Source: an uncultured Methanosarcinales archaeon (GTDB lineage: Archaea; Nanobdellota; Nanobdellia; Woesearchaeales; UBA10107). Taken from it: a stretch of 64,000 bases of DNA. Below the pieces are notes generated by a model. The model did no database searches, was not told the origin of the DNA, and was given only the letters and a program-made list of their open reading frames with translations. Shown here piece by piece: positions 5,629 through 43,810 of this stretch (its first letter is position 1; every line of letters begins with the position of its first letter). Location: positions 193,473 to 257,472 of the forward strand of contig OZ246410.1 in NCBI GenBank assembly GCA_965231065.1, in the 5' to 3' direction. The position numbers and the translations under genes were made by a program.

Positions 5629-8136
5629 GTGAAAATGTTGGGGCAAAAAAAGTTCATCGGACTGTTAAGTGTATTCTTGATCTTATTCAGCGTATTGCCA
5701 GCATTCGCTTTGCAAGAACAGTTTGATGTTGTCTCGGCAAAATCAATTGCTGCATGTTCAAATGGTGTCACGACAGATTCTATAACCATCAGAAACACCG
5801 GAGACATCGAAAGTGGATTCACTATTTCTGATTCAGGATCTGCTTCTGAGTTCACTACGTTTTCTGAGACATCGGTTTCAGTAAAACCAGGTGAATCAAA
5901 GACTGTATTTGCGTACATGAGTCCGAGTGGCAGAAAAGGCAACTATGATCTTAGCGCTATCATAACCAGTGCATTAGGAGAAAAGAAATCAGTTTCACAA
6001 TCAATTGAAGTGCAGAACTGCGCAAACATGCAAGTCTCGATCAAGACTCCGACAGTCACGGTAAATCCATGTCAGGTCTCTCAGTTTAGCTTCGATATCG
6101 CAAACACCGGTGATTATGCCGAGACATATGACTTCAAGGTCAAAGGACTCGAAGGATACACGACAGTAAGCACTAACAGCATATTCCTTGCTCCACAAGA
6201 GAGAAAGCAGATCGATGTGTTTGTCAATCCTTCCTGTAATATTTATGGACAAAAAGAATTGACATTGCAAACGACAGCACGAACAAGCCAATATGTAGCT
6301 CAAGCACACGTTGTGTTGAATATCCTACAGAATTATGAGTATGCAGTCGCAGTACAACCACAGGTAACTGTCTGTAACGCAAAGCAAATCGCAATTCCAA
6401 TCAGCATCGCGAACAAAGTACCGTTTGTGAATCAATATGACATCACAATCCATGGTCCAAATTTCTTGAAGCAGGAAGCACGACGTGTTGAACTCGGACC
6501 GTACATGAGCGGCATCACAAATCTATTCACCGTCGCAGATCATGCAGGAAGTTACCCGATCGACATCATTGTCAAATCAGTCAGGGGCGATGTCATCAAG
6601 GCAGGAACACAGAATCTTACGGTCGAGAACTGCTACGATGCGAATGTCAATATCGAGAATCCGTCTGATATCGTCATTGCAGGAAACAAAGCAAGCTACA
6701 AGGTCACGATCCTAAATCAAGGAACAAAAACAGACAGTTACACATTCGAACTGAATGCGCCTTCATTCGTTACATTCAGCGGCACGACACTACAGTTGAA
6801 TCCAAAAGAATCAAAGACGCTGACTCTTGAAGCGAATGTGCCTTCGAACGTCACCGGTTCATTTGTTGCAGTCCTGAAAGCAATTTCAAAAGAAACAGGC
6901 ATCGTCAAAGGGGACAAGATACAGATTAGTGTCTTGAGTCCTGACAAGGCATATAGCTTAAAGATATCACCACGACACTTACGAGTCTTATTCGGACAGG
7001 ATGCAGTCATACTTGGTCTGCAGAATAAAGGAATCTTACCAGCGACGTATGATTTCAGCTTGAAAGCACCATCATGGATGAAATTAGCGCAGAATTCCAT
7101 AACACTACAGCCAGGCGAAAAGAAAGATGTCTTTATCGCGACAAGTGCAGACAAGAAGAAGAATCAGGTCGCCAACTACGAAGCATCAGTCACTGCGACA
7201 GTCAAAGGGTCTGTCGGATTTGTCTCTAAATTCAACATCAGTTTACGAGAAGTGACATTGTTACAGGAGTTATATATTTTCTCTGTAAAATACATGTACT
7301 TCTTAATCGCAGGAGCTGTTGTACTCCTTATCTTACTATTCATCCTTATCTTTGGAAACAGAATCGCACGCAGATACAGAGCTTGGAAGATTAAGCGAGC
7401 TGAAATAGCGAAGATCAAGGCTGAATTGAAACAGCGAAGGAAAGAAGAGAAGCTTGCGAAGAAATTGATGAAGGAATCATTGAAACGATCACATCCTTCA
7501 AAATTCTGGAAGCGATTCTTTGGTGTCTTATTCATATTAGTTGCATTAGTATTGCTCACGGGCGCTGTCCTGTATGGAATCGGTTACGGTCCTATTGCTC
7601 AGGAATTCTTCAAACAGAAGCAGGCAGAGACTAAGTTTGCGCCGATCGTCAAGGTCAATACGACAGGATTGGAAGCATATGGCAATACGGTCATCGTACG
7701 AGGCACCGATGATGTCATTGTTCCTATCATCGTCAAGAATAATTTCGATAATGATCTCACCTTTGGTGTCGAAGTCAATCAGAAATGGATCAAGACCAAT
7801 GTTAAGGAGATTCGATTGGAAGCAGGCGACGAAGAAGTCATTAAATTACGAATAACACCGAGCGCGACTGAAGACGGCGTCTATAAGATCAGAGTCTCAG
7901 CACAGCTTGAACAAGAGGACAAGATCTACAACGAGGATATCACGCTCAACATCAGGAAAAAGAATGTACTGAGAGATATATTGAATTATGTACCGTATGT
8001 TGTTGGCGGAATCGTTGTTTTGATCGCTGGCTTATATTTCTATAAGAAACGAAAGAGAGAGTCAAGGGAAGCATTTGCTTCACGAAAGGCAAAACCTGCA
8101 CGGAAGATTGAAGTTTCTTTGCCGAAGAAAAGATAA
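5629..8136 (+). CDS. Large (835 aa) exported membrane/surface protein with signal peptide, at least four CARDB/Ig-like repeat modules, three TM segments and Lys/Arg-rich coiled regions
   Basis: N-terminal signal MKMLGQKKFIGLLSVFLILFSVLPAFA; repeated N-x-G...Y.F modules (SITIRNTGDIESGFTISDSG, SFDIANTGDYAETYDFKVKG, VTILNQGTKTDSYTFELNAPSF, LGLQNKGILPATYDFSLKAPSW); TM helices near residues 545-570, 625-650 and 785-805; K/R-rich stretches. Confidence 0.65.
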   Translation: MKMLGQKKFIGLLSVFLILFSVLPAFALQEQFDVVSAKSIAACSNGVTTDSITIRNTGDIESGFTISDSGSASEFTTFSETSVSVKPGESKTVFAYMSPSGRKGNYDLSAIITSALGEKKSVSQSIEVQNCANMQVSIKTPTVTVNPCQVSQFSFDIANTGDYAETYDFKVKGLEGYTTVSTNSIFLAPQERKQIDVFVNPSCNIYGQKELTLQTTARTSQYVAQAHVVLNILQNYEYAVAVQPQVTVCNAKQIAIPISIANKVPFVNQYDITIHGPNFLKQEARRVELGPYMSGITNLFTVADHAGSYPIDIIVKSVRGDVIKAGTQNLTVENCYDANVNIENPSDIVIAGNKASYKVTILNQGTKTDSYTFELNAPSFVTFSGTTLQLNPKESKTLTLEANVPSNVTGSFVAVLKAISKETGIVKGDKIQISVLSPDKAYSLKISPRHLRVLFGQDAVILGLQNKGILPATYDFSLKAPSWMKLAQNSITLQPGEKKDVFIATSADKKKNQVANYEASVTATVKGSVGFVSKFNISLREVTLLQELYIFSVKYMYFLIAGAVVLLILLFILIFGNRIARRYRAWKIKRAEIAKIKAELKQRRKEEKLAKKLMKESLKRSHPSKFWKRFFGVLFILVALVLLTGAVLYGIGYGPIAQEFFKQKQAETKFAPIVKVNTTGLEAYGNTVIVRGTDDVIVPIIVKNNFDNDLTFGVEVNQKWIKTNVKEIRLEAGDEEVIKLRITPSATEDGVYKIRVSAQLEQEDKIYNEDITLNIRKKNVLRDILNYVPYVVGGIVVLIAGLYFYKKRKRESREAFASRKAKPARKIEVSLPKKR

Positions 8137-8259: not shown

Positions 8260-8604
8260 TTATTTAAAACTTATCCTATCGCCAACAGACGTATTCAATG
8301 AGTTTCCTGCTGACAGTTCAATAATGTACTTTGCTCTGCCGGAAACACACCATCTCCATGGTTTCACATTTCTAACTATTTTCGTAACCTGTTTTTTTCC
8401 ATCCAAGAATAAAATATCAATAGCGAAACGCATAAAGAAGGTATGAATCATTTTATTATTTTCTATATAGAAATTAAATATCATACCACGACCTAGAAAA
8501 GTATCCTTTAATCTGAACATCAAACCAAGTGTTTGATGTAGTGGATTTCTCGCAAATTCAGCTTTTCTTGCCAAAATCCTGCTTTTTGTCACATTCCGTA
8601 TCAT
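8260..8604 (-). CDS. DUF192 (COG1430-type) protein of unknown function
   Basis: 114 aa; LGLMFR...GMIF.F......MHTFFMRFAIDILFLD...KPW pattern is characteristic of the DUF192 fold. Confidence 0.55.
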   Translation of the reverse strand: MIRNVTKSRILARKAEFARNPLHQTLGLMFRLKDTFLGRGMIFNFYIENNKMIHTFFMRFAIDILFLDGKKQVTKIVRNVKPWRWCVSGRAKYIIELSAGNSLNTSVGDRISFK

Positions 8605-8649
8605 CTAAAACCTCTTAATGGCCAGATATAGGCCTTAAATCATCAAATC

Positions 8650-8669
8650 TCCATCGGAAATGAAGGGGT
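8650..8669 (+). promoter_or_regulatory. Origin recognition box (ORB)-like element tccatcggaaatgaaggggt, an exact 20-nt match to the ORB at 20085-20104
   Basis: Dyad TCCA-NNN-GGAAA followed by a G-string AGGGGT, the architecture of archaeal Orc1/Cdc6 ORB sites; identical 20-mer (reverse complement) found in the cdc6-proximal origin region. Confidence 0.55.
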
Positions 8670-8766
8670 ATTTCCCTCTCCAAACTACATATTGACAAAA
8701 CAACAGTATTTATAAATAGGCGGTTGTTTATAAAACTTATAAATCAGCAGTAGTGGGGGGAAATGT

Positions 8767-9333
8767 ATGGCTGAAGAAAAACTTGACATAAAGATAGTAA
8801 ACATCGTTGTAGCGTCTTCTCTAGAACACGATATTCCTTTAGAAAAAATGGCTGCGACATTGAGTAATACCGAATATAATCCTGAGCAATTTCCAGGATT
8901 AGTCATCAGAATCAAAGAACCAAAGACATCTGCACTGATTTTCAGTTCAGGCAAGATCGTCTGCACTGGCGCAAAGACATTAGATGAAGTAAGAAAGTGT
9001 ATTGACAAGATCATACAGAGCCTTGAGAAGATCAATGTAAAGATCACGGTGACACCTGTCATCACGATCCAGAACATTGTCGCATCCGGTTCAATCGGCA
9101 TGGATTTGAACTTGAATTCATTGGCAATGAAGCTCGACAACACTGAATACGAACCAGAACAATTCCCAGGACTCGTATACAAAGTCAAGATCACAAAGAA
9201 TACTGACAAACCATTCAATGCGACATTCTTGTTGTTCAGCAACGGAAAGATCGTCTGTACCGGTACAAAGAGTGAAGAGCAGGTAAAGATAGCCGTACGA
9301 CAGTTGATTGAGAATTTGAAAAAGGTTAAATAA
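8767..9333 (+). CDS. tbp: TATA-box binding protein (TBP)
   Basis: 188 aa with two direct repeats (NTEYNPEQFPGLVIRIKEP...SGKIVCTGAKT / NTEYEPEQFPGLVYKVKIT...NGKIVCTGTKS), diagnostic of TBP. Confidence 0.92.
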   Translation: MAEEKLDIKIVNIVVASSLEHDIPLEKMAATLSNTEYNPEQFPGLVIRIKEPKTSALIFSSGKIVCTGAKTLDEVRKCIDKIIQSLEKINVKITVTPVITIQNIVASGSIGMDLNLNSLAMKLDNTEYEPEQFPGLVYKVKITKNTDKPFNATFLLFSNGKIVCTGTKSEEQVKIAVRQLIENLKKVK

Positions 9334-9342
9334 AAGTACTCT

Positions 9343-11376
9343 TTGGTGAAAGAGGGACCAATGGAGGCTGCTGAACAAGTTAGGAAGTTTGAAGAGTTTT
9401 TTGACATGCACTACAATGCAGAGCTGTCAGAACAGATACGTAAAGGCCTTGATTTTCTCATTGTTGATTTCTCTAAGCTATCCAAATTCGATCCTGAGCT
9501 CGCAACACTATTGCTCGAGGACCCTGAGAATGTTCTAAAAGCGGCAGAGATCGCTGTCAGCAATTTCACCACTACACGACAGCCTTCTAATTTTACTATC
9601 CGCGTCTCAAATCTTCCTGCGACTCAAAGAATAACCATCCGGGACATCAGAAGCAAACACATCGGGAAGATGCTTTCTCTCCAAGGACTAGTAAGACAGA
9701 AGACTGATGTCAGACCGCAGGTCACCAGCTCACGGTTTGAATGTCCTGCGTGCGGCACAGTCATCCCTATCCTGCAATTAGACTCAAAATTCAGAGAGCC
9801 AAGCAGCTGTGGCTGCGGAAGAAAGGGAAAATTCAGACTATTGAGCAAGGAATTAGTCGATGCGCAGGGAATTGTTCTGGAAGAGATTACTGATCAGCTC
9901 GATAGCGGAGAACAGCCAAAGAAAATCAACATATTGCTGAAGAAAGATCTCGTATCACCGTTATCAGATAAACGCACTAATCCTGGAACAAAGATAGCAA
10001 TCGTCGGTATCCTCAAGGAAGTACCCATCTTAGCGCGTGATGGTGGCAAACTCACTAAGTTCGATTTGCTGATTGAGTCAAACTATGTCGAATCCATGGA
10101 AGAAGGATTCAAGGATCTTTTAATCGATGAGGGAGATATGAAACAGATCGTCGCGCTTTCAAAAGACAAATATTTATTCGAGAAATTTACCCTCGGTATC
10201 GCACCAAGCATCTATGGTCACGAAAAGATCAAGGAAGCATTGATTCTTCAGTTAGTGGGCGGAGTCAGACAGATGCGAAAGGACGGTGTTGCGACCAGAG
10301 GAGATATCCACATACTTCTCATCGGTGATCCCGGATCGGGTAAATCTCAGTTGTTGAAACGAATCTCTGTTGTTGCACCAAAAGCACGATATGTGTCCGG
10401 AAAAGGCGCATCAGCAGCAGGATTGACTGCAGCAGTCGTAAAAGATGAATTTTTAGGCGGTTGGAGTCTGGAAGCTGGCGCGTTAGTACTAGCGAATCAG
10501 GGCATCTGCATCATAGATGAGTTAGATAAGATGGGCAAAGATGACCGGGCAGCGATGCACGAGGCACTGGAACAGCAGACAATCTCTATTTCCAAAGCAA
10601 ATATCCAAGCGACACTTCGTTCTGAAACAACATTATTGGCAGCTGCAAATCCGAAGATGGGCCGATTCGATCCATTCGAGCCGATCGGAAAGCAGATTGA
10701 TCTGCCAAATACATTGATCAACAGATTTGATCTCATCTTCCCGATCAAAGACCTGCCGGATGAAGATAAGGATGATAAATTAGCCAGTTTTATCCTTGGT
10801 CTGCACCAAAAAGAGGCAAAAGAACAGGAAATATCGAAAGATCTCCTCAGGAAATATATCGCCTATGCGAAACAGGCGATCGTCCCTAAGCTCACTGATG
10901 AAGCGATGGAAGAGATCAAGAGTTACTATATGAAGATGCGAGCGTCCGGAGAAGGAGAAGGCTCCTATCGTTCTGTTCCTATTTCAGCACGACAGCTTGA
11001 AGCATTAGTACGTCTTGCAGAAGCATCAGCGAAGTTGAGATTAAGCAGCATTGTGGAAAAGAAAGATGCGCAGCGTGCTGTTGAACTGTTACACTACTGT
11101 CTGAGCCAGATCGGTATCGATCCTGAGACAGGTAAGATCGATATCGACAGGATCACGACCGGAATCACCGCTACCCAACGAAATAAAGCGCACAGCATCA
11201 AAGAGATAATTGCTGAATTGGAATCTAAATTAGGAAAATCAATACCGATCGAAGAGATTATGAAGGAAGCAAAAACAAAAGGTATTGAGGATTCTCAGAC
11301 AGAAGAGATCATTGAACGTTTAAAGAGGGATGGCGACTTATTTGAACCGAGACATGGATTCATCTCGAGAATCTAG
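9343..11376 (+). CDS. mcm: MCM replicative helicase
   Basis: 677 aa; N-terminal C4 zinc motif CPACG...CGCG, Walker A GDPGSGKSQLL, Walker B CIIDELDKM, sensor/arginine finger SARQLEALVRLAEA, C-terminal winged helix. Confidence 0.93.
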   Translation: MVKEGPMEAAEQVRKFEEFFDMHYNAELSEQIRKGLDFLIVDFSKLSKFDPELATLLLEDPENVLKAAEIAVSNFTTTRQPSNFTIRVSNLPATQRITIRDIRSKHIGKMLSLQGLVRQKTDVRPQVTSSRFECPACGTVIPILQLDSKFREPSSCGCGRKGKFRLLSKELVDAQGIVLEEITDQLDSGEQPKKINILLKKDLVSPLSDKRTNPGTKIAIVGILKEVPILARDGGKLTKFDLLIESNYVESMEEGFKDLLIDEGDMKQIVALSKDKYLFEKFTLGIAPSIYGHEKIKEALILQLVGGVRQMRKDGVATRGDIHILLIGDPGSGKSQLLKRISVVAPKARYVSGKGASAAGLTAAVVKDEFLGGWSLEAGALVLANQGICIIDELDKMGKDDRAAMHEALEQQTISISKANIQATLRSETTLLAAANPKMGRFDPFEPIGKQIDLPNTLINRFDLIFPIKDLPDEDKDDKLASFILGLHQKEAKEQEISKDLLRKYIAYAKQAIVPKLTDEAMEEIKSYYMKMRASGEGEGSYRSVPISARQLEALVRLAEASAKLRLSSIVEKKDAQRAVELLHYCLSQIGIDPETGKIDIDRITTGITATQRNKAHSIKEIIAELESKLGKSIPIEEIMKEAKTKGIEDSQTEEIIERLKRDGDLFEPRHGFISRI

Positions 11377-11378
11377 AT

Positions 11379-12002
11379 ATGGACCAACCCACACAGTCAC
11401 AGCCCAGACAAACAGCGTACATCGTGAAGGTAGTGGATATTCTCAAAGGAGTGTTTGTTAAAGAATCAGGATGGAATCCGAGCTACATCATGATTGGTGA
11501 TAAACAGGTTGCAAGAGCGAATATTATTGGTGTGATTATCAGTATCGCTGATGCTGAAAATACACAGACCATTGTCATCGATGATGGCACTGGCAAGATC
11601 ACTGCACGGAGTTTTGAGAAAAAATTCACGACCGTAGTCGGTGATGCGGTGATGATGGTCGGCAGGATACGACAATACGGCTCTGAGATATATATAGCTC
11701 CCGAGATCATCAAGAAGATTGATCCGCGATGGAATGCAGTATGGAAGAAGCAAGCATTGAACAATGAAACTGCCGAGCCAAAGACATCAGTAGGACAAAA
11801 AACAGCTGAAATCAAAATCGATGATCATCGTAAGACCAGAACAGAATCAATCATCGATAAGATAAAAGAATTGGATGATGGCAGCGGTGCTGATTATGAA
11901 GCAATCATGAAATTTGTGTCTGATGAAAAGATACTCTCTAATCTCATCCTCAATGGCGAGATCTTTGAGATTAAACCAGGTAAATTAAAAGTTCTTGACT
12001 AA
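11379..12002 (+). CDS. OB-fold + C-terminal winged-helix protein (RPA32/Stn1-like architecture), translationally coupled to mcm
   Basis: 207 aa; OB-fold-like core ANIIGVIISI...TIVIDDGTGKITARSF...VGDAVMMVGRI..YGSEIYIAPEII; C-terminal ~60 aa resemble an RPA32C-type wH; starts 3 nt after the mcm stop. Confidence 0.45.
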   Translation: MDQPTQSQPRQTAYIVKVVDILKGVFVKESGWNPSYIMIGDKQVARANIIGVIISIADAENTQTIVIDDGTGKITARSFEKKFTTVVGDAVMMVGRIRQYGSEIYIAPEIIKKIDPRWNAVWKKQALNNETAEPKTSVGQKTAEIKIDDHRKTRTESIIDKIKELDDGSGADYEAIMKFVSDEKILSNLILNGEIFEIKPGKLKVLD

Positions 12003-12972: not shown

Positions 12973-13380
12973 ATGGCTGAGATGTATGAAACATTGCTGA
13001 AACGAGGCATGAAACAGCTTCCTGAAGTCGTAGTAGAGATATCTCGGTTCGAGACACCGAAAGTCAAAGGACATATCCAGGGCAATAAGACGATCATCAG
13101 CAACATCAATGAGATTGTCGAGAAATTACGAAGACCTGCTGCGCATATTGTCAAATTCTTGCTCAAAGAATTAGCGACACCGGGCGAGATACGGGGAAAT
13201 TTCTTGGTACTAGGAACAAAAATATCTGCTTCACGAGTCAATGAAAAACTAGAAGAGTATGTGCAGAGATACGTCATTTGCCCGGAATGCAAGAAACCTG
13301 ATACGAAACTGAAGAAAGAAGGCGGATTCACATTCATCATATGTCAGGCATGCGGTGCCAAGAAAACTGTAAAAGAATGA
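12973..13380 (+). CDS. Translation initiation factor 2 beta subunit (aIF2-beta)
   Basis: 135 aa; C-terminal C4 zinc ribbon CPECKKPDT...CQACG and the conserved central helix of e/aIF2-beta. Confidence 0.85.
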   Translation: MAEMYETLLKRGMKQLPEVVVEISRFETPKVKGHIQGNKTIISNINEIVEKLRRPAAHIVKFLLKELATPGEIRGNFLVLGTKISASRVNEKLEEYVQRYVICPECKKPDTKLKKEGGFTFIICQACGAKKTVKE

Positions 13381-13673
13381 TTGTAAAGATACACGAAACA
13401 AAAAATGGAGTGGTCGTCGCAGTCGTAGATAAAGAGCTCATCGGTCAGGTATTCGAAGAAGGAGATCTGCAATTGGATCTGACTTCAAAATTCTATAAAG
13501 GAGATCAGAAAATGCCGGAAGAGATCGGCGATCTCATGCGAAATGCATACGGTGTAAATCTTGTTGGTGAACGAACCATCGCATTAGCGATCGAAGAAGG
13601 CATCATTGATGAAACAGCAGTCAGAAAGATAAAAAACACCCCATACTATCAAGGAACGGTCGATGCTGATTAA
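13377..13673 (+). CDS. DUF424 (COG2412-type) archaeal protein of unknown function
   Basis: About 98 aa starting at MIVKIHETKNG; VVAVVDKELIGQVFEEGDLQL...FYKGDQ pattern matches the DUF424 family; start overlaps the aIF2-beta stop. Confidence 0.45.
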   Translation: MIVKIHETKNGVVVAVVDKELIGQVFEEGDLQLDLTSKFYKGDQKMPEEIGDLMRNAYGVNLVGERTIALAIEEGIIDETAVRKIKNTPYYQGTVDAD

Positions 13674-16600
13674 CCGAACCATGCTCCGAGTCCGACTTGT
13701 TTCTCTTTGTCCCTGCCAAACATCGATTCCAGCCTATATCTGATGAGATCAAGACTGTCTTTCAGATAATCATCACAGCCATATCTCTGTGCGAGACTGA
13801 TGGAGGGTTCAAGATACTTTACGATAGAACCTTCTGAGATGGTAAATATCAACCGACCGCCACATTTGGTGCATTTTCCAACGAGAGGGGTACGACGATA
13901 GCTCTCATTGCAATTAGAGCATCTGAATTTCTGCATCGAGAACTTTCGAAGATTACCTCGTGTATCTTTCATGAAATGTTTTTCGATGACCAATCGAGCG
14001 ACATCGGACATATTGACAGCTCTGATCTTTCGTGCAAGTTCCATCTGTCCCTTTAGTTTTTCTTCAAGCGTCGGTAGTGTTTTATATGCAGAACAATGAG
14101 CTCCTGAGTTAAAATCAGAGACATCATGAGTGAATCCGATACCTTCATACTGGTTTGGCGTGCCTAAGAATTCTCCCAATCGTTTGATACCGACTTCCCA
14201 GGGAGGACTGATCTTCTGGGCTGCTTCGTAGAATTCGAGAGGATATTTCCAGACTACATCGAGTTTATGGATCATATCATCGACTTCTGCGGGGTTGAGG
14301 ATCGCAGTCAGGACTAATGGTGCATCCATAGTTCTTCCGCCTCTGTTGTCAGGTAGAAATTGACGAGAAAAATTCAAAAGTCCATCCATGAGGAGCATAA
14401 CGCAGCACTCATCACCATCACAATCACGTCTCATCGCTGCGTGATACAACGGATGCGCAAGCATGCCCGCGGTCTGTGAAAATCCGATGATCCGTGCGAC
14501 TGTTCCTGCAGAAATATGGGGAGCCAGTCCAATAACGAGGTGTCCGATCAGATCATCTGACTTTTTCAGATTGTAGTACGGTTCTAATCCATAAAATCGT
14601 ACCAAGAGATCATCTACGAAATTGGCGACATTGAATAGTACTTCGCTTGCGGGAGAATCAAGGGTATCTTTTCCTGCAGGAAGAATCATATCCTGTGGCT
14701 TGAGCTCGATGACCTGATCATCATCTACTATCTCATCGCCATGGATATCAACGGTGTATCCAAGTTCCTTGATCTTTGCGACTGTATTTCCTATTTCCTT
14801 CAGTTTGAAATGGGTGATCGGTATCTCTGACATATCGTATCGGGTAGTGCCGTCTTTATTGACAGATACATCATGTCGTGCGCGGAGTATTCCTTTTGCA
14901 AAATGTTCTGGTAGATGATCTTTATTTGCTGTTCCTTTGACTCCTTTGATCATATCGGGGACATTTTTCAGATCAAGCATTTTGAGCACACTATCGTAAA
15001 TTCTGGTAAAATTTATTTCTGTCTGTGCATACGTCCTGTTTTTGCCATGCTGTGGGCAGGTGTCTTTCATCTGTACGCCACAGCTAGCACAATAGAAGCG
15101 TTTCTCTGTCTTCTGTTTACATTGCTCACAAACATTGAAGACAGTATCCCGTTTACAAGCGATGCAATGTCGTAATGGAAATTCGGCATTCACCTTGCCT
15201 ATACCAAGTACTGATTGGAAGGATCGCATTCTGCCACCTTCTTCTCCGACAGGAAATAATACATGCGGTGCACCGATGAGCTTACGCATCTTCGCTTTCT
15301 CAGGGCGTCCCATTCGGGCACCGATGAAGGTTCCTGATTTATCACGGATGGTGATGCCGGAAATGATGCTGAGCAATTCAATGATTGATTTATCTTTACC
15401 TTCTTCGATTATTGCTCTTCGTGCTGGGTTTTTCAGACCAAGCGTATATAAGAATGCCTCTGCATCATCTTTTTCGACGATCGCATCTTCAGTCGCCATG
15501 CTATGCGGCAAACCGATGAGCTCGAGATATCTCTTCTGAGGATCTCCTTTCTTTACCGGAACGATTATCTTCTTTACTTTGTCATCATCGATCTCGATTT
15601 TTGACTTTGATAATAGATCATAAACCTCAAGAAGCTGTTCATGAGACAGAACATTCCAATGATAGGTATATCGCGGATGCAATGGTACATTTAATTTCTC
15701 AGCCATCTTGATTGCTGCTTTAGCAGATAAATGAGCACTTGTTGGATTCTTGAACAGGTGAGCAAGAGTTTCGGTAGGTATTTCGACAAGTGCGGAGAGT
15801 TTCTCAATGTCCAGCGTCCCGAACATACCAATGACTGCTTTCTCGATCTCCTGCACATACCACTCTTCACAATAACCGCAGGGAACTAACGGATGTGCAC
15901 GATCAAAGAAATCACCATAGGAAAACAACATATCTCCCAAGTAGAGTATCTCATCGACCTCTGGGTTAAGCCTCTTAGCTTCATTAAAATCATCAAGTCT
16001 GATCACAGAGCCATTTTCCATCAATACAATCGGGCCTTCAATGGAATCGCAAACTGCGATCGCTGCTGCTTTTCCCGGGCGCTCTACCTTTAGTTGTGTC
16101 CCGATAGCTACGTAATCATCTAAGACAGCCATTGTTGCCGGATGAATACAGGCGGCAGAGTATCCGCTGACTCGTGATCGCCCATACCGTAATCTGAATC
16201 CGCCATGAGCGAGTGGATGTGTCAATACTGGTCTGCCACCAACTAAATCAACGATAAAAGTATTGTCTGCGGAAACTTTCGGCTTGTCATCTTTTTTAGT
16301 TTCTGTCTTTTTTCCTGATTTAACTTCTTTCTGAATCTTCAAAAATGAACCGAGGAAATCCCAATCTAAGCCAAAATCCTTGCCCCATTTCTGTAGTTCT
16401 TTCCATACTTTCGGCGCTTTGAGTGCAAGCATGGAAAGGACCAAACACATCCCTCCTCGTATTTTGTTTGTCGGAATTCGGGGAAGATCCTTGTAGTTGC
16501 TCACATCGAGTTTCTCAGTTGGATCGCCGGTAATCTCGATCGGCAATATCTTTGCAAGATGTTTTGTCTCTTGCTCACTGGGGCGATATTGCAGATTGGT

Positions 16601-17221
16601 GACTCGCTCGTGATAATCCTCGAGCTCTGTAAAAAATCGATTTACTTCATTTGCATCTGGATCATAGACATCATACCCCATGATCTTCCGTATATAATCA
16701 GCCAGTACAACCGAGAACGCAGCGGCGGTGCCTCCAGCGCCTCTCACCGGACCGGCATAGCTCATCGCAAGATATTCCTTGCCATCTTTTCGTTTTTTAA
16801 TATGCAGTTCAACAAATCCTTCTAGCGGAGCTGAGACGATACCAACCGTGTGGTATGCAAATCCTGTCCTGATGCCAACTTCCATCGCTTCACGTTTGTC
16901 TTTGAACGTACAGAATTTTTCTTTTGCTACCTCTTCAGCGATGAGCAAGGCTACTTCCCATGAAAGTGGTTTATACTTCTGCTCGAGTTCATGAATCCTC
17001 TGCGGAACTCCTTTACCAATCAGTTGCGGTGCGACCGCAGAGATTAAACCCTCTACACGCTCTGCCATATTTCTTGCGAGAGGAATATCAACCTTCGGCT
17101 CGGGATCAAATCCCTGTGCACGTGCCTTTGCTGCGATGAGATATGCTTTGTCAGTATCTCTCTCAAGTGCATCAAAGTAGCTCTTCATCTGCTCGCTGCA
17201 GACAATTGAAGTGCCAGTCAT
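13670..17221 (-). CDS. DNA polymerase II (PolD) large catalytic subunit DP2
   Basis: 1183 aa; long conserved PolD-L architecture with multiple zinc-binding Cys clusters (CxxC...CxxC) and a C-terminal Cys cluster; no intein evident; 4-nt overlap with the DP1 gene. Confidence 0.92.
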   Translation of the reverse strand: MTGTSIVCSEQMKSYFDALERDTDKAYLIAAKARAQGFDPEPKVDIPLARNMAERVEGLISAVAPQLIGKGVPQRIHELEQKYKPLSWEVALLIAEEVAKEKFCTFKDKREAMEVGIRTGFAYHTVGIVSAPLEGFVELHIKKRKDGKEYLAMSYAGPVRGAGGTAAAFSVVLADYIRKIMGYDVYDPDANEVNRFFTELEDYHERVTNLQYRPSEQETKHLAKILPIEITGDPTEKLDVSNYKDLPRIPTNKIRGGMCLVLSMLALKAPKVWKELQKWGKDFGLDWDFLGSFLKIQKEVKSGKKTETKKDDKPKVSADNTFIVDLVGGRPVLTHPLAHGGFRLRYGRSRVSGYSAACIHPATMAVLDDYVAIGTQLKVERPGKAAAIAVCDSIEGPIVLMENGSVIRLDDFNEAKRLNPEVDEILYLGDMLFSYGDFFDRAHPLVPCGYCEEWYVQEIEKAVIGMFGTLDIEKLSALVEIPTETLAHLFKNPTSAHLSAKAAIKMAEKLNVPLHPRYTYHWNVLSHEQLLEVYDLLSKSKIEIDDDKVKKIIVPVKKGDPQKRYLELIGLPHSMATEDAIVEKDDAEAFLYTLGLKNPARRAIIEEGKDKSIIELLSIISGITIRDKSGTFIGARMGRPEKAKMRKLIGAPHVLFPVGEEGGRMRSFQSVLGIGKVNAEFPLRHCIACKRDTVFNVCEQCKQKTEKRFYCASCGVQMKDTCPQHGKNRTYAQTEINFTRIYDSVLKMLDLKNVPDMIKGVKGTANKDHLPEHFAKGILRARHDVSVNKDGTTRYDMSEIPITHFKLKEIGNTVAKIKELGYTVDIHGDEIVDDDQVIELKPQDMILPAGKDTLDSPASEVLFNVANFVDDLLVRFYGLEPYYNLKKSDDLIGHLVIGLAPHISAGTVARIIGFSQTAGMLAHPLYHAAMRRDCDGDECCVMLLMDGLLNFSRQFLPDNRGGRTMDAPLVLTAILNPAEVDDMIHKLDVVWKYPLEFYEAAQKISPPWEVGIKRLGEFLGTPNQYEGIGFTHDVSDFNSGAHCSAYKTLPTLEEKLKGQMELARKIRAVNMSDVARLVIEKHFMKDTRGNLRKFSMQKFRCSNCNESYRRTPLVGKCTKCGGRLIFTISEGSIVKYLEPSISLAQRYGCDDYLKDSLDLIRYRLESMFGRDKEKQVGLGAWFG

Positions 17222-18684
17222 TGTTCAGTCTGTCCTGAGAAGTTCAAGACTTTTACCTCTCGCGTCTTTAAGTTGATGATCGGGATTCGTCCAGGATCAG
17301 GAACATGACCTACTTTCTCCTGGAATGATGTTCTTGATTGGAAGCAACTACCGATGATGCCGGTGATGACGCCTTTGTAGGTGAATACCGCTGACTTGTG
17401 AACATCACCCGATACAAAGATATCAGGAATTTTGTCTATGACAAGGTGATCCTGCTCTGTTGGGAGATGTGGGTTACCATCATAGGTCGGTGCAAGATGT
17501 CTCTTTTGCAATAATAATCTCATGACCAGATCAGCACGTTCACTGATATTTGGTTTTTGAATACGAATGCTTTCTACCTTGTCTGCATAATGATTGTATG
17601 AATATCCGTGATACATAAGGATGTCAAAACCTGCAAATCCATCACGGCTTGCGATGTTAACTAGCGCTGGATTGCTCACCATGGTGACATTGGGCATATC
17701 CCAAAGCCCTTCACAGTATTCCCGTGGCAACGGAGGCTGCGGTTCAGCAAGATGGACTACATCGTGATTACCGGGACAAACGATGATCTTGATATCCTGT
17801 GGGATTTGTTTGATATATTCTATAAACTTAGTATACTGACCGCGATAGGTGAGAATATCGAGCTCCTCTTTCTGCGAGGGATACACTGAAATACCATCAA
17901 CAAGATCGCCGGTCACTACGACATACTTCACTTTTGATGCGATATCACGCTGACGTTCGTTGCCAACCTCGCCTCTGAGCCAATTGACAAATTTAACAAA
18001 TTCCTCCTCGAGAAACTGTTTTGATCCCACATGGATATCTGAGATGAACAGTACATACTCTTCGACGGGTGATTTTTTAATTTCCTTGGTCACAGGAATA
18101 TCAGGGAAATATAACTCATTCGCAAAAATGATATTCTTGCCCATCGAGCCGGAGATACCGATGACCTCATCATCCACAATATCATTTGCCCGTGCGAGCA
18201 GATCCGCTTTATTTTTACTGAAAAAGACCTTGATCGATCCGGTCGGATCTTCCGCAGTCAACATGACGCCGCTTTTAGTCTCTTCTTTGGTATACACCAT
18301 GCCAATGATCGATACTTGTTCACGTTCTGGTTTGCCTTTCAATCGCCCGATAGAGACTGCATTCTCGAGGTTGTTCCGTTGCTGAAGAATGCGTTTCAAG
18401 ATGCTATATCGTGAATTAAAGTGGTTGATGAAATCCTGGACCACGATCTTTTTCGGCTGTTCTTTATACGAGAAGACCACTCTTACTTTTCCGTCGCGGC
18501 CTGACTGACTCGGCAATGGTCTCGGATCAGTCTGTTGTTCCAGTCTTTTGTTGATGAGATCAAATACCTGCCGAGTATCATTCGCCGCATTGAGAATATC
18601 GAGGAATTCAGGCTCAAGAAGTACTTTTTGCTCAAGCAGAAACTGTACAATTCTCTTTTTTTTATGCTGTAACTCTTGATTCAT
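17218..18684 (-). CDS. DNA polymerase II (PolD) small exonuclease subunit DP1
   Basis: 488 aa; N-terminal OB region and C-terminal calcineurin-like phosphoesterase motifs (FISDIHVGS, VVVTGDLVDG, VCPGNHD, GHYH) typical of PolD DP1. Confidence 0.9.
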   Translation of the reverse strand: MNQELQHKKKRIVQFLLEQKVLLEPEFLDILNAANDTRQVFDLINKRLEQQTDPRPLPSQSGRDGKVRVVFSYKEQPKKIVVQDFINHFNSRYSILKRILQQRNNLENAVSIGRLKGKPEREQVSIIGMVYTKEETKSGVMLTAEDPTGSIKVFFSKNKADLLARANDIVDDEVIGISGSMGKNIIFANELYFPDIPVTKEIKKSPVEEYVLFISDIHVGSKQFLEEEFVKFVNWLRGEVGNERQRDIASKVKYVVVTGDLVDGISVYPSQKEELDILTYRGQYTKFIEYIKQIPQDIKIIVCPGNHDVVHLAEPQPPLPREYCEGLWDMPNVTMVSNPALVNIASRDGFAGFDILMYHGYSYNHYADKVESIRIQKPNISERADLVMRLLLQKRHLAPTYDGNPHLPTEQDHLVIDKIPDIFVSGDVHKSAVFTYKGVITGIIGSCFQSRTSFQEKVGHVPDPGRIPIINLKTREVKVLNFSGQTEQ

Positions 18685-18739: not shown

Positions 18740-19978
18740 CTATGCTACAAATCCAAAACTCTTTTCCAATATTTCTTTCGCTTTTGCCTTGGTTGTGTTC
18801 TGGATTGCTAATGTTATCTTTCGTGTCCTTCCATATCGTCCCTTGGAGACGACCTTCCCATTGATGATACCGAGCATATCAAGTTCGGCGATGATATCAG
18901 AGACTCTCCGCTGTGTTAAGGGACGCAGATGGATATTGTCGCATATTTTTTTGTATAATTCATAGATATCACCGGTAAATAAATTTTCGTCCCGGTCCTT
19001 TGATTTCAGGTCAGCGGCATCCTCATTCATCCGCATGATCGAGTATAATATTGCCTGGTGCTGCTTTGGCTGTGTGGTAATGATATCAAGTATCCTATCT
19101 TTTTCAATCTTTTCTTCTGCGATATCAATATGTTTGATAGTGACTTTCTGTTCATCGTTTCGTTCTGCTAATTCTCCTGCGACTCTTAACAATTCCAAAG
19201 CTCTTCGTGCATCGCCGTGTTCTCGTGCTGCATAAGCAGCGCATTTCTCGATGACTCCCATCTCGACAGATCCTGGCTTGAAAGCCTCTTTTGCCCGTTG
19301 ATTAAGGATATCTTGCAATTGTAATGCGTTGTATGGCGGAAATACGATCTCTTCTTCAGATAAAGAACTCTTTACCCGTGGATCAAGCATATCAGTAAAG
19401 ACAAGGCTATTTGAAATACCAATCAATGATATCTGCGCGTTTTTTAGTTCAGAATTAATTCTAGTGAGTGTGTAGAGAATCTCATCTCCTGTCTTTTCAA
19501 CCAATTGATCAATCTCATCAAGGATAAGCAAGAGGAGTTGTTTTTTACTGTCGACTAGATGGGTAAAGATACGATAGACTTCTTGCGTCGGAAGTCCTGT
19601 TTTCGGTACTTCGCTGCCCATCGAACGTATCAATTCAGCGATGAGCCGATATTCAGTGTCAGCGGTATTTCTTAACTTACAGTTAACATAGATAACTGAA
19701 AGATTGATGTTTCGTTCTTTCGCTAATGTAAGTAGATTGTTAGTGACATATCGCACTGAGAGTGTTTTTCCGCTGCCAGTCTTTCCATAGATGAATAGAT
19801 TGGATGGTTTTTGGTATAATAGTGCAGAACCGAGTATATTCGCTACCTGCTCGATCTGCTGATCCCTATGTTGGATCGTATCGGGATTGTAATTCGACTG
19901 GAGTGTTGATTTATCGCTAAAGAGAAATTCTTTTTTTAGAAAATTTTCGAAGAATCCTTTTAGCTTGTTTTCTTTCAT
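18740..19978 (-). CDS. cdc6: Orc1/Cdc6 replication initiator
   Basis: 412 aa; AAA+ Walker A GKTGSGKTLSV, Walker B LLILDEID, C-terminal winged helix; sits beside an ORB-containing AT-rich region and upstream of the polD genes. Confidence 0.92.
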   Translation of the reverse strand: MKENKLKGFFENFLKKEFLFSDKSTLQSNYNPDTIQHRDQQIEQVANILGSALLYQKPSNLFIYGKTGSGKTLSVRYVTNNLLTLAKERNINLSVIYVNCKLRNTADTEYRLIAELIRSMGSEVPKTGLPTQEVYRIFTHLVDSKKQLLLLILDEIDQLVEKTGDEILYTLTRINSELKNAQISLIGISNSLVFTDMLDPRVKSSLSEEEIVFPPYNALQLQDILNQRAKEAFKPGSVEMGVIEKCAAYAAREHGDARRALELLRVAGELAERNDEQKVTIKHIDIAEEKIEKDRILDIITTQPKQHQAILYSIMRMNEDAADLKSKDRDENLFTGDIYELYKKICDNIHLRPLTQRRVSDIIAELDMLGIINGKVVSKGRYGRTRKITLAIQNTTKAKAKEILEKSFGFVA

Positions 19979-20484
19979 GTCTACCCCTTTAATTCTCCAA
20001 ACGAAATAAAGGTATATAAAAGTTGTGATTTGGTGTTTAAAGACGTTTATAGTGTGATATATGTAGTTTAGAGTATATACACCGACCCCTTCATTTCCGA
20101 TGGAAACCTAGTGTAGTGTAGTGTGTATGTGTTAATCAATAATTAATTATAAACAATTTACTTATTTTATACTTTCATCATCAAATCACTTACTACTAAC
20201 TACTTATATTGTTTTCTATATAGAAAATAAATAATATAAATAATAAATAACTTTTCAGTTAAATTTTAATAGAGGTTGAGTGTGTTGTAAATGTTGTTTA
20301 AAGAAGTTCTAGTAGAAACGAAGGGGTGGGTGTGATATATATTATTTTTGCTATTTCATAGTAGCAAAATAATGAAAAGGTTTATATATTAGTTTAAAGT
20401 TTGTCATCCAGAGATTACGATAAAATCGCTTTAAACGATTCCTGTAAGGTGTATAGGCGCTAAGTACTTAGAGGAAACAAAACC
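19979..20484. promoter_or_regulatory. Probable chromosomal replication origin (oriC): AT-rich DUE flanked by inverted ORB elements at 20085-20104 (minus sense) and 20304-20327 (plus sense)
   Basis: About 500-nt non-coding AT-rich spacer upstream of cdc6; accccttcatttccgatgga at 20085-20104 and aagttctagtagaaacgaaggggt at 20304-20327 both carry the ORB G-string GAAA-N-GAAGGGGT in opposite orientation around the most AT-rich 200 nt. Confidence 0.6.
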
Positions 20485-21300
20485 ATGATTGTAAAGAAAG
20501 AATTTTTGAAGAAACTAAAAGACTTCGGTCTCAATACTTACGAAAGTAAATTATGGACAGCACTTCTTTCAAGAGGAGTCTCAACTGCTGGAGAACTTTC
20601 TGATATCGCAAATGTTCCGCGATCACGATCATATGATGTTCTAGAGTCATTAGAGAAGAAAGGTTTCATCATAATGAAGATCGGCAAGCCGATAAAATAC
20701 ATCGCAGTACCTCCAGATGAGATCGTCACTCGTGTCAAGAAGAAAATAGAAGATGAATCTAAATCACAACTAAGCGCTCTTGATGAATTAAAAGAATCAG
20801 ACATTCTTGATGAGTTGAAATTATTGCATAAGAATGGCGTCGAACTTATTGAGCCAGGTGATTTAACTGGTATCATAAAGGGAAGAAATAATCTCTATAA
20901 TCACTTGGAAGCTATGATGAAATCAGCTACAAAATCAATCTGTATCTTCACTACAAAAGATGGCCTTATCAGGAAATCAGATTCATTCAAGGTTGTTTTC
21001 AAGAAATTGGCTGAGCGAGGTATTTCAATCAGAATCGCAGCTCCTATTGACGCTGAAGTCGCTTCGATTGTGGCTTCTTTGAAGGATGTCGCAACCGTTA
21101 AGAATATTCCTGATGTGGCTGGCAGATATTGCTTGATTGACGGCAAGGAAGCGATCTTTATGCTTCTTGATGATGCTGAAGTCCACCCTTCATACGACTG
21201 TGGTGTTTGGATCAACACTCCTTATTTCGCAAAGGCATTGCAAGCGCAGTTCGATGCTCTTTGGAATGTTTCTGAAGAGAAAATGGTTAAGAGAAACTGA
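20485..21300 (+). CDS. TrmB-family transcriptional regulator (N-terminal wHTH + C-terminal effector-binding domain)
   Basis: 271 aa; N-terminal LNTYESKLWTALLSRGVSTAGELSDIANVPRSRSYDVLESLEKKGF is a textbook TrmB HTH; paralog of 28198-29004. Confidence 0.7.
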   Translation: MIVKKEFLKKLKDFGLNTYESKLWTALLSRGVSTAGELSDIANVPRSRSYDVLESLEKKGFIIMKIGKPIKYIAVPPDEIVTRVKKKIEDESKSQLSALDELKESDILDELKLLHKNGVELIEPGDLTGIIKGRNNLYNHLEAMMKSATKSICIFTTKDGLIRKSDSFKVVFKKLAERGISIRIAAPIDAEVASIVASLKDVATVKNIPDVAGRYCLIDGKEAIFMLLDDAEVHPSYDCGVWINTPYFAKALQAQFDALWNVSEEKMVKRN

Positions 21301-28197: not shown

Positions 28198-29004
28198 TTA
28201 CTTGGAAGGTGCTTTCATGCCTTTCCAGGATAACTCAAACAGTTCTTCGACTGCAGATGCGAAGAACGGGCTATTGATCCAGATACCGACGTCATAGGTT
28301 GGATGGACTTCTTCATCATCTAAGATCATAAAGACCATCTCTTTTCCATCAACAATAGTGAATCGTGCTTTCGTGTTACTGTTTTTCACTTCAGCGACTG
28401 ATGATATGTCTTTGATTGCTGCTGCATTCTCTTTCGTGAACGGCGCTGCGATTCTGACTCTGACTCCTCGTTTCTTGAGTTTTTCAAGTACCGGCTTCAA
28501 TCCTTCTACTTTTCTCATCAATCCTTGTGCTGTCGTCATGATCGTGACTGATTTCTCTGCACCTTTGATGACTAATTCTAAATGATTGTATAAATTATGC
28601 CGCCCTTTCAAACTTCCGGAAAGATCGCTTGGCTCGATTAATTCAACACCTTGTGTATGGAGTGCACTCAATTCATCCAGAACATCAGTGCCTTTCAATT
28701 CATCAAGGCGCGTCGTCATCGTCTTCGCATCTTCAGCAACATTTTTCTTGACTCGTTCAAGAACTTCTTCAGGCGGTACGGCAACGTATTTGATTGGTTT
28801 TCCTAATTTCGTGATTGCAAATCCTTTTTTTTCAAGTGATTCGAGAACATCATAAGATCGTGATCGCGGAACATTTGCGATATCGCTTAATTCACCTGCT
28901 GTAGAAACACCGCGTGAGAGCAATGCAGTCCAAATCTTGACTTCGTACAGATTTAAGTTGAAATATCTTCTTAATTTTGCTAAAAACTCCTCTTTAACTA
29001 CCAT
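28198..29004 (-). CDS. TrmB-family transcriptional regulator, paralog of 20485-21300 in inverted orientation
   Basis: 268 aa; shares an identical 38-aa HTH segment WTALLSRGVSTAGELSDIANVPRSRSYDVLESLEKKGF with the first copy, including a 29-nt identical DNA stretch gatatcgcaaatgttccgcgatcacgatc. Confidence 0.7.
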   Translation of the reverse strand: MVVKEEFLAKLRRYFNLNLYEVKIWTALLSRGVSTAGELSDIANVPRSRSYDVLESLEKKGFAITKLGKPIKYVAVPPEEVLERVKKNVAEDAKTMTTRLDELKGTDVLDELSALHTQGVELIEPSDLSGSLKGRHNLYNHLELVIKGAEKSVTIMTTAQGLMRKVEGLKPVLEKLKKRGVRVRIAAPFTKENAAAIKDISSVAEVKNSNTKARFTIVDGKEMVFMILDDEEVHPTYDVGIWINSPFFASAVEELFELSWKGMKAPSK

Positions 29005-43717: not shown

Positions 43718-43810
43718 TATTTTGATTAATTTAGGAGCTTATTTAAACGTATTTAATTTCTATATAGAAAATAAATATGATTAAATACACACAACTTTCA
43801 TTTTATTTTT

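Follow-up and report, generated by a model that had tools for sequence, protein, structure and literature searches.

Initiator-binding sites inside and outside archaeal origins

The ORBs of archaeal oriC regions, among them those of Sulfolobus oriC1, Pyrococcus oriC, and the Methanomassiliicoccales, are bound by Orc1/Cdc6 and have the consensus CTTCCAGTGGAAACGAAAGGGGT (PMC4153887). The box analyzed here, located at positions 8650 to 8669 of a 64-kb stretch of archaeal DNA (the window, meaning the whole stretch that was analyzed), has the same dyad, G-string, and spacing. In contrast to the boxes of oriC, it is single, has neither an inverted partner nor a DUE, is placed within a promoter region at a distance of 11 kb from the origin, and is without the 3' extension specific to the origins of its clade.

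ORBs that lie near an origin and lack origin activity, as the 8650 box probably does, have been described in Haloarcula hispanica (the oriC2D cluster; PMC3936714) and in Thermococcales (a cluster in dp1; PMC1904270). Those are clusters, however (11 ORBs in oriC2D; an ORB plus mini-ORBs in dp1), that stand directly beside cdc6 and have been interpreted as titration or origin-accessory elements, whereas position 8650 has one box at a fixed distance from the promoter of another operon. Single canonical ORBs away from the cdc6-linked origin are also on record for 'Ca. Methanomassiliicoccus intestinalis', near ftsZ and nifH/nifE (PMC4153887, Table 2), but these were merely catalogued, without shown conservation or a link to replication genes, both of which the 8650 box has.

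In Sulfolobales, Orc1-family proteins bind outside origins and affect transcription (PMC3607249, PMC9738581). Several sites outside the origins are known for the Sulfolobus Orc1 proteins, whose deletion changes transcript profiles (PMC3607249), and Orc1-2 is a genuine regulator of transcription (PMC9738581). Orc1-2, however, is a dedicated non-initiator paralogue for the DNA damage response that binds no origin in vivo, whereas the 8650 box is a canonical ORB whose presumed reader is the initiator. For Orc1-1 and Orc1-3, sites outside origins have been mentioned but not described (PMC3607249). ChIP-chip analysis of Pyrococcus abyssi found oriC to be practically the only Cdc6/Orc1 site (PMC1904270), and extra-origin regulation is therefore not universal. 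A preliminary description of this DNA had stated that ORB-based regulation of replication genes is known in some archaea. The literature offers thinner ground than this implied: non-origin Orc1 sites are indeed mentioned, but merely mentioned (PMC3607249), and Cdc6 binding in Pyrococcus is practically confined to oriC (PMC1904270).

In bacteria, DnaA boxes occur in the promoters of dnaA, nrdAB, and other genes, with DnaA acting as a transcription factor (PMC8203912), and there, as at the 8650 box, an origin-type site is reused upstream of replication genes, that of the initiator itself included. Reuse of this type would, in the present case, couple gene expression to initiator status. The protein family and the domain of life differ, however, and the operon that would be controlled here encodes the replicative helicase along with the general factor TBP.

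We found no description in the literature of a conserved ORB upstream of mcm or tbp, nor any study of an archaeal mcm promoter, and a 2026 preprint on complete Nanobdellota genomes mentions none of ORB, MCM, or TBP. Extra-origin initiator boxes, Orc1-family transcription factors, and catalogued isolated ORBs (PMC4153887) are thus already known, while the conserved link between an ORB and mcm or tbp appears to be new.

Gene neighborhood and the tbp-mcm promoter

The genome of the window belongs to the Woesearchaeota (DPANN), and its MCM homologues are labelled Woesearchaeota or Nanoarchaeota. The gene order is Ig-like membrane protein, DUF192 (-), tbp, mcm, RPA32-like, SpoIIM (-), aIF-2beta, DUF424, PolD DP2 and DP1 (-), orc1/cdc6 (-), origin, and TrmBL2-like regulator. 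The features on which the analysis rests are as follows.

8260 to 8604 (-): DUF192 gene, the divergent neighbor (Pfam DUF192, E = 8e-18)
8650 to 8669 (+): isolated full ORB, TCCATCGGAAATGAAGGGGT, with dyad TCCAnnGGA and G-string GGGGT (PWM score, 33.9; present in 9/9 relatives)
8678 to 8692 (+): 15-nt extension, CTCCAAACTACATAT, a 14/15 match to the reverse complement of 20059 to 20073, beyond origin ORB1
8706 to 8719 (+): TATA box 1 of the tbp operon, GTATTTATAAATAG, starting 39 nt after the ORB; an invariant block in the alignment of nine sequences
8727 to 8744 (+): second and third TATA-like boxes, TTTATAAAA and TTATAAAT
8755 to 8760 (+): ribosome-binding site of tbp, GGGGGG
8767 to 9333 (+): tbp, first gene of the operon (Pfam TBP, E = 6e-59; NCBIfam)
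9361 to 11376 (+): mcm, replicative helicase of 671 aa (P0001; Pfam MCM_N, MCM_OB, MCM, lid, and WH domains)
11379 to 12002 (+): RPA32-like OB-fold protein (P. abyssi RPA32 chain 8aas_B, E = 6e-10; weak Pfam RMI2 match)
13670 to 18684 (-): PolD DP2/DP1
18740 to 19978 (-): orc1/cdc6, presumed reader of the box (Pfam Cdc6_lid and Cdc6_C winged helix; NCBIfam NF001625, score of 515.9 above the cutoff of 501)
20085 to 20104 (-): origin ORB1, identical to the 8650 box, facing cdc6 at 106 nt from its ATG
20105 to 20307 (no strand): origin DUE (79% AT), the least stable duplex in the window
20308 to 20327 (+): origin ORB2, TCTAGTAGAAACGAAGGGGT, a weaker copy inverted relative to ORB1 (PWM score, 23.9)

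The gaps of 27 nt between tbp and mcm and of 2 nt between mcm and the RPA32-like gene make it likely that tbp-mcm-rpa32 is an operon. Throughout the Woesearchaeales, the TBP gene appears to be cotranscribed with mcm and the RPA32-like gene (8767 to 12002 in the window), and aIF-2beta (12973 to 13380) lies nearby, which echoes the linkage of MCM and aIF-2beta reported by Berthon et al. 2008 (PMC2643942). Inteins (Intein_splicing and LAGLIDADG domains) split PolD DP2 in one relative (L175/L176, 14204 to 19168) and MCM in others (P0071 and P0120).

The DUF192-tbp spacer, 162 bp long, is a divergent promoter region, a point absent from the preliminary description, and DUF192 could therefore be affected by the box as well. 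Three consecutive TATA-like boxes (8706 to 8744), the first of them invariant in nine relatives, precede the gene for the TATA-binding protein itself, an arrangement that hints at TBP autoregulation or alternative start sites. A scan of the window for sigma-70 promoters and terminators is inapplicable to archaea and was uninformative.

Identity, copies, and strength of the 8650 box

The 20-mer at 8650 to 8669 (+) recurs as an exact reverse complement at 20085 to 20104, 11.4 kb away, and no third match with at most 3 mismatches exists in the 64-kb window. Shuffled sequence yielded a mean of 0.01 matches, and 0/100 shuffles reached two. With its dyad and G-string at fixed spacing, the box agrees with the pan-archaeal consensus. 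Its G-string end faces tbp, whose ATG (8767) is 97 nt away, and 45 nt separate its dyad end from the start codon of DUF192, which is read divergently (8604, -). Both the identity of the two copies and the placement of the isolated one roughly 100 nt upstream of tbp, in the DUF192-tbp spacer, had been reported in the preliminary description and are hereby confirmed.

A PWM built from 34 DPANN ORBs scored the 8650 box at 33.9, origin ORB1 at 35.9, and origin ORB2 at 23.9, so that the 8650 box equals ORB1 in strength and exceeds ORB2. These are the only three strong ORBs in the window; weaker ORB-like matches at 8039 (PWM score, 14.8; within a coding region) and 30242 (10.9) were judged uninformative. 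Two short-read assemblies made independently from other runs (L001 and L002) have the same sequence upstream of tbp, and the box is therefore no assembly artifact.

The likeness between the 8650 site and ORB1 extends beyond the 20-mer, since both are followed, after 8 nt at the 8650 site and after 11 nt at the origin, by CTCYAAACTACATAT, with 14/15 positions matching. This 15-nt extension at 8678 to 8692 is not conserved among relatives in the alignment of nine sequences and is therefore probably the product of a recent copying or gene conversion event that involved both sites of the window genome. In relatives, moreover, the two boxes differ by several bases, and gene conversion in the window genome may therefore be recent. 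The identical 20-mers with their 15-nt extensions (8650 to 8692 and 20059 to 20104) form an inward-facing inverted repeat that brackets an 11.4-kb island of replication genes from tbp to cdc6.

The origin at 20 kb

ORB1 and ORB2 turn their dyad ends toward the segment from 20105 to 20307, which ranks as the least stable of the whole window at the 60-, 100-, and 200-bp scales. Since this segment of lowest stability lies between inverted boxes and beside orc1/cdc6-dp1-dp2, it is the true origin, in agreement with the preliminary description, which had named a cdc6-linked origin with two inverted ORBs (one of them at 20085 to 20104) on either side of an AT-rich DUE; the origin architecture is the same in relatives. 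An Orc1/Cdc6 with a winged-helix DNA-binding domain is encoded in the same genome (18740 to 19978), with one copy in the window (a single tblastn hit).

The cdc6-proximal ORB lies 94 to 106 nt from the cdc6 ATG, with its G-string toward the gene, in the window and in three relatives (L003, L004, and L175). The tbp box and the cdc6-proximal ORB are thus alike in orientation and in distance from the start codon. A further ORB-like element, TCCAAACGAAATAAAGGTAT at 19996 to 20015 (+), is weak (PWM score, 16.2) and lies on the cdc6 side of ORB1, before the start of the gene; it abuts the cdc6 TATA box and is kept in L003 and L004. Because of its contact with the TATA box, this element would fit a candidate site for autorepression of cdc6 by Orc1.

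Other elements also occur around the origin. A 21-nt sequence, TTTCTATATAGAAAATAAATA, lies in the DUE at 20213 to 20233 and again at 43757 to 43777, in a divergent intergenic region (43718 to 43810); its palindromic core, TTCTATATAGAA, is kept in the DUE of relatives (L003, 17981; L004, 17694), and it may be the binding site of another factor or a promoter element. A TrmBL2-like winged-helix regulator (20485 to 21300, +) adjoins the origin on the side away from cdc6, likewise in L003, in L004, and even in L008, and a paralogue with 60% identity lies 8 kb off at 28225 to 29004 (-). TrmBL2 is a chromatin-like protein in Thermococcales, and an origin-associated role of the TrmBL2-like regulator is therefore conceivable.

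Conservation in close relatives

Nine distinct sequences with MCMs 68 to 100% identical made up the footprint set, for which 8 further relatives were fetched at MCM identities of 68 to 83%. A forward ORB (PWM score, 25.8 to 35.5) is found 91 to 104 nt before the tbp ATG in 9/9 close relatives. In the nine-sequence alignment, pairwise identity is 0.85 within the box, compared with 0.49 and 0.55 in the adjacent spacers, and further conserved islands coincide with the DUF192 start, an invariant TATA box, AGTATTTATAAATAG, a second TATA box, and the ribosome-binding site. Across species, the initiator box keeps a fixed position and orientation relative to the promoter elements, as an initiator-operated promoter would: in 9/9 relatives the ORB lies 27 to 39 nt upstream of TATA box 1, and the corresponding arrangement occurs in 7/7 Poseidoniales loci. 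By this comparative evidence, the box upstream of tbp should be functional.

More distant Woesearchaeales

In more distant Woesearchaeales (MCM identity, 52 to 62%), the gene order is tbp-mcm-rpa32-SpoIIM-ori-cdc6, with the operon only about 2 kb from the origin. We fetched 12 loci of this group without regard to the motif, which, because L135 and L139 have the same upstream sequence, amount to a small sample of 11 distinct loci; a strong box stands upstream of tbp in 4 of the 11, inverted in one of the four. Many lineages must therefore have replaced the box or be able to dispense with it. Four further DPANN loci with ORB-tbp-mcm-rpa32 (L018, L098, L110, and L118) came independently from the pattern scan, and an ORB upstream of tbp-mcm is also present in L130 and L149. 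L098 and L134 have the same layout as the window, namely, ORB, 27 nt, TATA box 1, TATA box 2, SD, and ATG. The upstream neighbor varies by lineage (DUF192, an AI-2E transporter, a GT9 glycosyltransferase, or a wHTH protein) while tbp-mcm is constant, which ties the box to tbp-mcm and not to DUF192.

The GC-rich relative L130 (1134 to 3001) has tbp and mcm in divergent orientation, with a strong ORB at -262 of tbp and a weaker ORB-like box 60 nt upstream of the mcm start; the latter is inverted relative to the tbp box and about 1 kb from it.

An ORB upstream of mcm in Poseidoniales

In Poseidoniales (Marine Group II), the pattern scan found three loci (L026, L040, and L114) with a lone forward ORB about 70 nt before the mcm ATG. 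As a control for selection bias, four loci (L179 to L182) were chosen by MCM identity alone (71 to 87%), and in all four a forward ORB precedes the mcm ATG by 65 to 85 nt and a TATA-like element by about 20 nt; in each 7-kb locus, it is the sole strong PWM match. An ORB thus lies upstream of mcm in 7/7 Poseidoniales loci, four of them chosen blind, in a region divergent with an esterase/hydrolase gene. One MAG has the mcm box on one contig (L114) and, on another (L009), two inverted ORBs separated by 145 bp, as is typical of an origin, next to a beta-CASP RNase gene.

The ORB as a pan-archaeal motif

The pattern TCCANNGGAAAYGAAGGGGT, which fits published ORB consensus sequences (PMC4153887, Table 2), was scanned over 596 Gb of mostly bacterial genomes and matched at least 120 stretches. 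Among the first 120 matches listed, 113 are labelled as archaeal, with many phyla represented; Cdc6 and DP1 are encoded in one more, which bears the label Omnitrophota, and 6 look truly bacterial. A Cdc6 homologue was encoded in the same block of at most 8 kb for 41 of these first 120 listed. Judged by its sequence, the box at 8650 to 8669 is a canonical pan-archaeal ORB.

The preliminary description had conceded that random occurrence throughout the genome, unrelated to replication genes, would point to a generic repeat. In approximately 620 kb of related DNA, however, 37/40 matches with at most 3 mismatches are at origins, in cdc6 promoters, or upstream of tbp or mcm, which argues against a generic repeat.

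Apparently orphan ORBs in other DPANN MAGs were considered as members of a regulon and rejected, since they proved to be mostly origin regions about 2 kb from cdc6 in the context of two winged-helix genes. In Pacearchaeota and other DPANN (L010, L012, L013, L021, L034, L041, L053, L059, L061, L066, L071, L083, L085, L089, L104, and L107), ORBs lie between two conserved winged-helix genes, of about 205 and 100 aa, that are themselves roughly 2 kb from cdc6-dp1-dp2, and they appear within or just before a further open reading frame. In L032, L038, L056, and L094, one or two tandem ORBs lie 70 to 120 bp upstream of the gene for a small (about 134-aa) winged-helix protein, which in L038 is followed by a DUF192 gene.

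Alternative explanations

A second origin, a titration site, and an architectural site are each less likely than a promoter-upstream Orc1/Cdc6 site. A second origin, of a minimal or dormant kind, or a place of helicase loading beside mcm, with the AT-rich TATA region as the unwinding element, is an improbable reading of the 8650 box, even though the ORB is the defining element of origins, a single full ORB can bind Cdc6 tightly (PMC1904270), archaea have multiple and dormant origins (PMC4595724), and some relatives have two boxes upstream of tbp (a tandem pair in L118 and the inverted pair about 1 kb apart in L130). An oriC has at least two ORBs, typically inverted, that flank an unwinding region; the 8650 box stands alone, with no other ORB-like match on either strand within 450 bp (best reverse-strand PWM score, -5.9), and both the clade-specific extension of origin ORBs and the conserved DUE palindrome are missing from the site. 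The 162-bp spacer is occupied by two promoters, and an AT-rich DUE of low stability is absent from it: AT content at the site is 64 to 67%, and the stability windows there rank at the 94th to 99th percentile (64% AT and the 95th to 99th percentile for 8605 to 8766), an ordinary, promoter-like value, whereas the true DUE ranks first. The Poseidoniales box lies about 20 nt from a TATA-like element, in an intergenic region of 43 to 61% GC. A copy of the palindrome TTCTATATAGAA at 8461 to 8472, beyond the dyad end of the box and surrounded by sequence of 80% AT, was considered as a DUE partner and corresponds to the F-Y-I-E codons of the conserved FxIE motif of DUF192; it was rejected as an origin feature because relatives carry synonymous or variant codons there, the AT richness following from the protein sequence. 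The remark in the preliminary description that only one ORB is present, with no DUE of the type found at 20105 to 20300, is borne out by the PWM scan and the stability ranking. Its preference for a regulatory role over a second origin gains support from the lack of a partner ORB within 450 bp and of DUE-like instability, from the position and orientation kept in 9/9 relatives, and from recurrence in distant lineages.

The box might instead be an initiator site that acts near the origin and not on a promoter, either as a titration sink of the datA or oriC2D type or as an architectural anchor that pairs with origin ORB1, which we regard as unlikely. A non-origin ORB cluster does negatively control Haloarcula hispanica oriC2, apparently by titration of Cdc6E (PMC3936714), a second ORB cluster of Thermococcales, in dp1, flanks cdc6 (PMC1904270), and wherever a Woesearchaeales locus includes both the tbp box and the origin, the two are within 5 to 12 kb of each other. 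The inverted repeat of 20-mer and 15-nt extension around tbp to cdc6 would, with its inward-facing boxes on either side of the 11.4-kb island, allow looping. The capacity of one site is negligible, however, compared with the 11 ORBs of oriC2D, and a titration locus would be a cluster of many initiator boxes, where the 8650 locus has a single one (PMC3936714). The orientation of the box and its distance from the tbp start codon and the TATA boxes are fixed, and the link to mcm exists also in Poseidoniales, where one MAG has its inverted ORB pair on a contig other than that of the mcm box (L009 and L114, respectively). Fixed geometry at tbp and the mcm link in Poseidoniales therefore argue for a promoter function over mere nearness to the origin. 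A nonfunctional relic of origin-region rearrangement or chance duplication, or a box read by some other winged-helix protein, is the least probable explanation. The cdc6-dp1-dp2 block is inverted relative to tbp-mcm between the window clade and more distant Woesearchaeales, so rearrangements have occurred nearby, and the 20/20 identity with the 15-nt extension suggests recent copying in the window genome. But the box is kept in 9/9 relatives while its flanks are only about 50% identical, a sign of purifying selection, which speaks against a relic; it stands at the end of the operon far from the inversion breakpoint; L134 and L149 combine a SpoIIM-adjacent origin with a tbp box; and the ORB-mcm link occurs independently in Poseidoniales. 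We know of no candidate reader of the canonical ORB other than Orc1/Cdc6.

A proposed promoter-upstream Orc1/Cdc6 site at the helicase operon

The comparisons show the sequence identity, ORB character, conservation, and geometry of the box and the absence of origin features around it; binding by Orc1, an effect on transcription, and the sign of that effect are inferred. We propose, at a probability of roughly 0.6, that the 8650 box is a single high-affinity Orc1/Cdc6 site upstream of the promoter, which would couple expression of tbp-mcm-rpa32 to the initiator. Orc1/Cdc6 would bind the box as an upstream element at roughly -60 to -105 from the transcription start of tbp-mcm-rpa32, or at about -70 to -89 if TATA box 1 is used. 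The bound protein, with its AAA+ side facing the TATA boxes, would modulate transcription of the helicase operon, and helicase supply would thereby be tied to the level or the nucleotide state of the initiator. The identical box upstream of orc1/cdc6-dp1-dp2 would act likewise on the initiator and PolD, and a side effect on the divergent DUF192 promoter, which is only about 10 to 15 nt away from the dyad end, is conceivable. In Pyrococcus, one full ORB is enough for high-affinity binding of Cdc6/Orc1 (PMC1904270). A counterpoint to the promoter model is that the tbp boxes are without the 3' extension GnGTGTAyATAT carried by the origin ORBs of the clade; in Pyrococcus, sequence around the ORB core matters for binding.

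As to the sign of the regulation, we lean toward activation or recruitment at tbp-mcm. In archaeal promoters, a position upstream of BRE/TATA is typical of activators and recruiters and not of steric repressors, and because the box lies upstream of these elements without overlap, activation or recruitment is favored over steric repression.

Because relatives and very distant archaea alike retain this placement of the box, the initiator probably helps to control expression of the helicase gene. A wider reading is possible but doubtful, namely, that DPANN Woesearchaeales and Thermoplasmatota Poseidoniales have in common a previously undescribed circuit in which Orc1/Cdc6, through a single promoter-upstream ORB, directly controls transcription of mcm and, in Woesearchaeales, also of TBP and the RPA32-like subunit. 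The two outer operons of the 11-kb island, tbp-mcm-rpa32 and cdc6-dp1-dp2, would then be joined into one Orc1-controlled unit by the inward-facing boxes of the window (8650 and 20085), possibly by looping.

For origin prediction, these results are a warning that a lone perfect ORB beside mcm should not be counted as a second origin. A canonical ORB that two distant lineages keep at a set distance before the helicase gene is a concrete, testable cis element for feedback from initiator to helicase, and such feedback, if true, would be an archaeal counterpart of the DnaA-box regulons.
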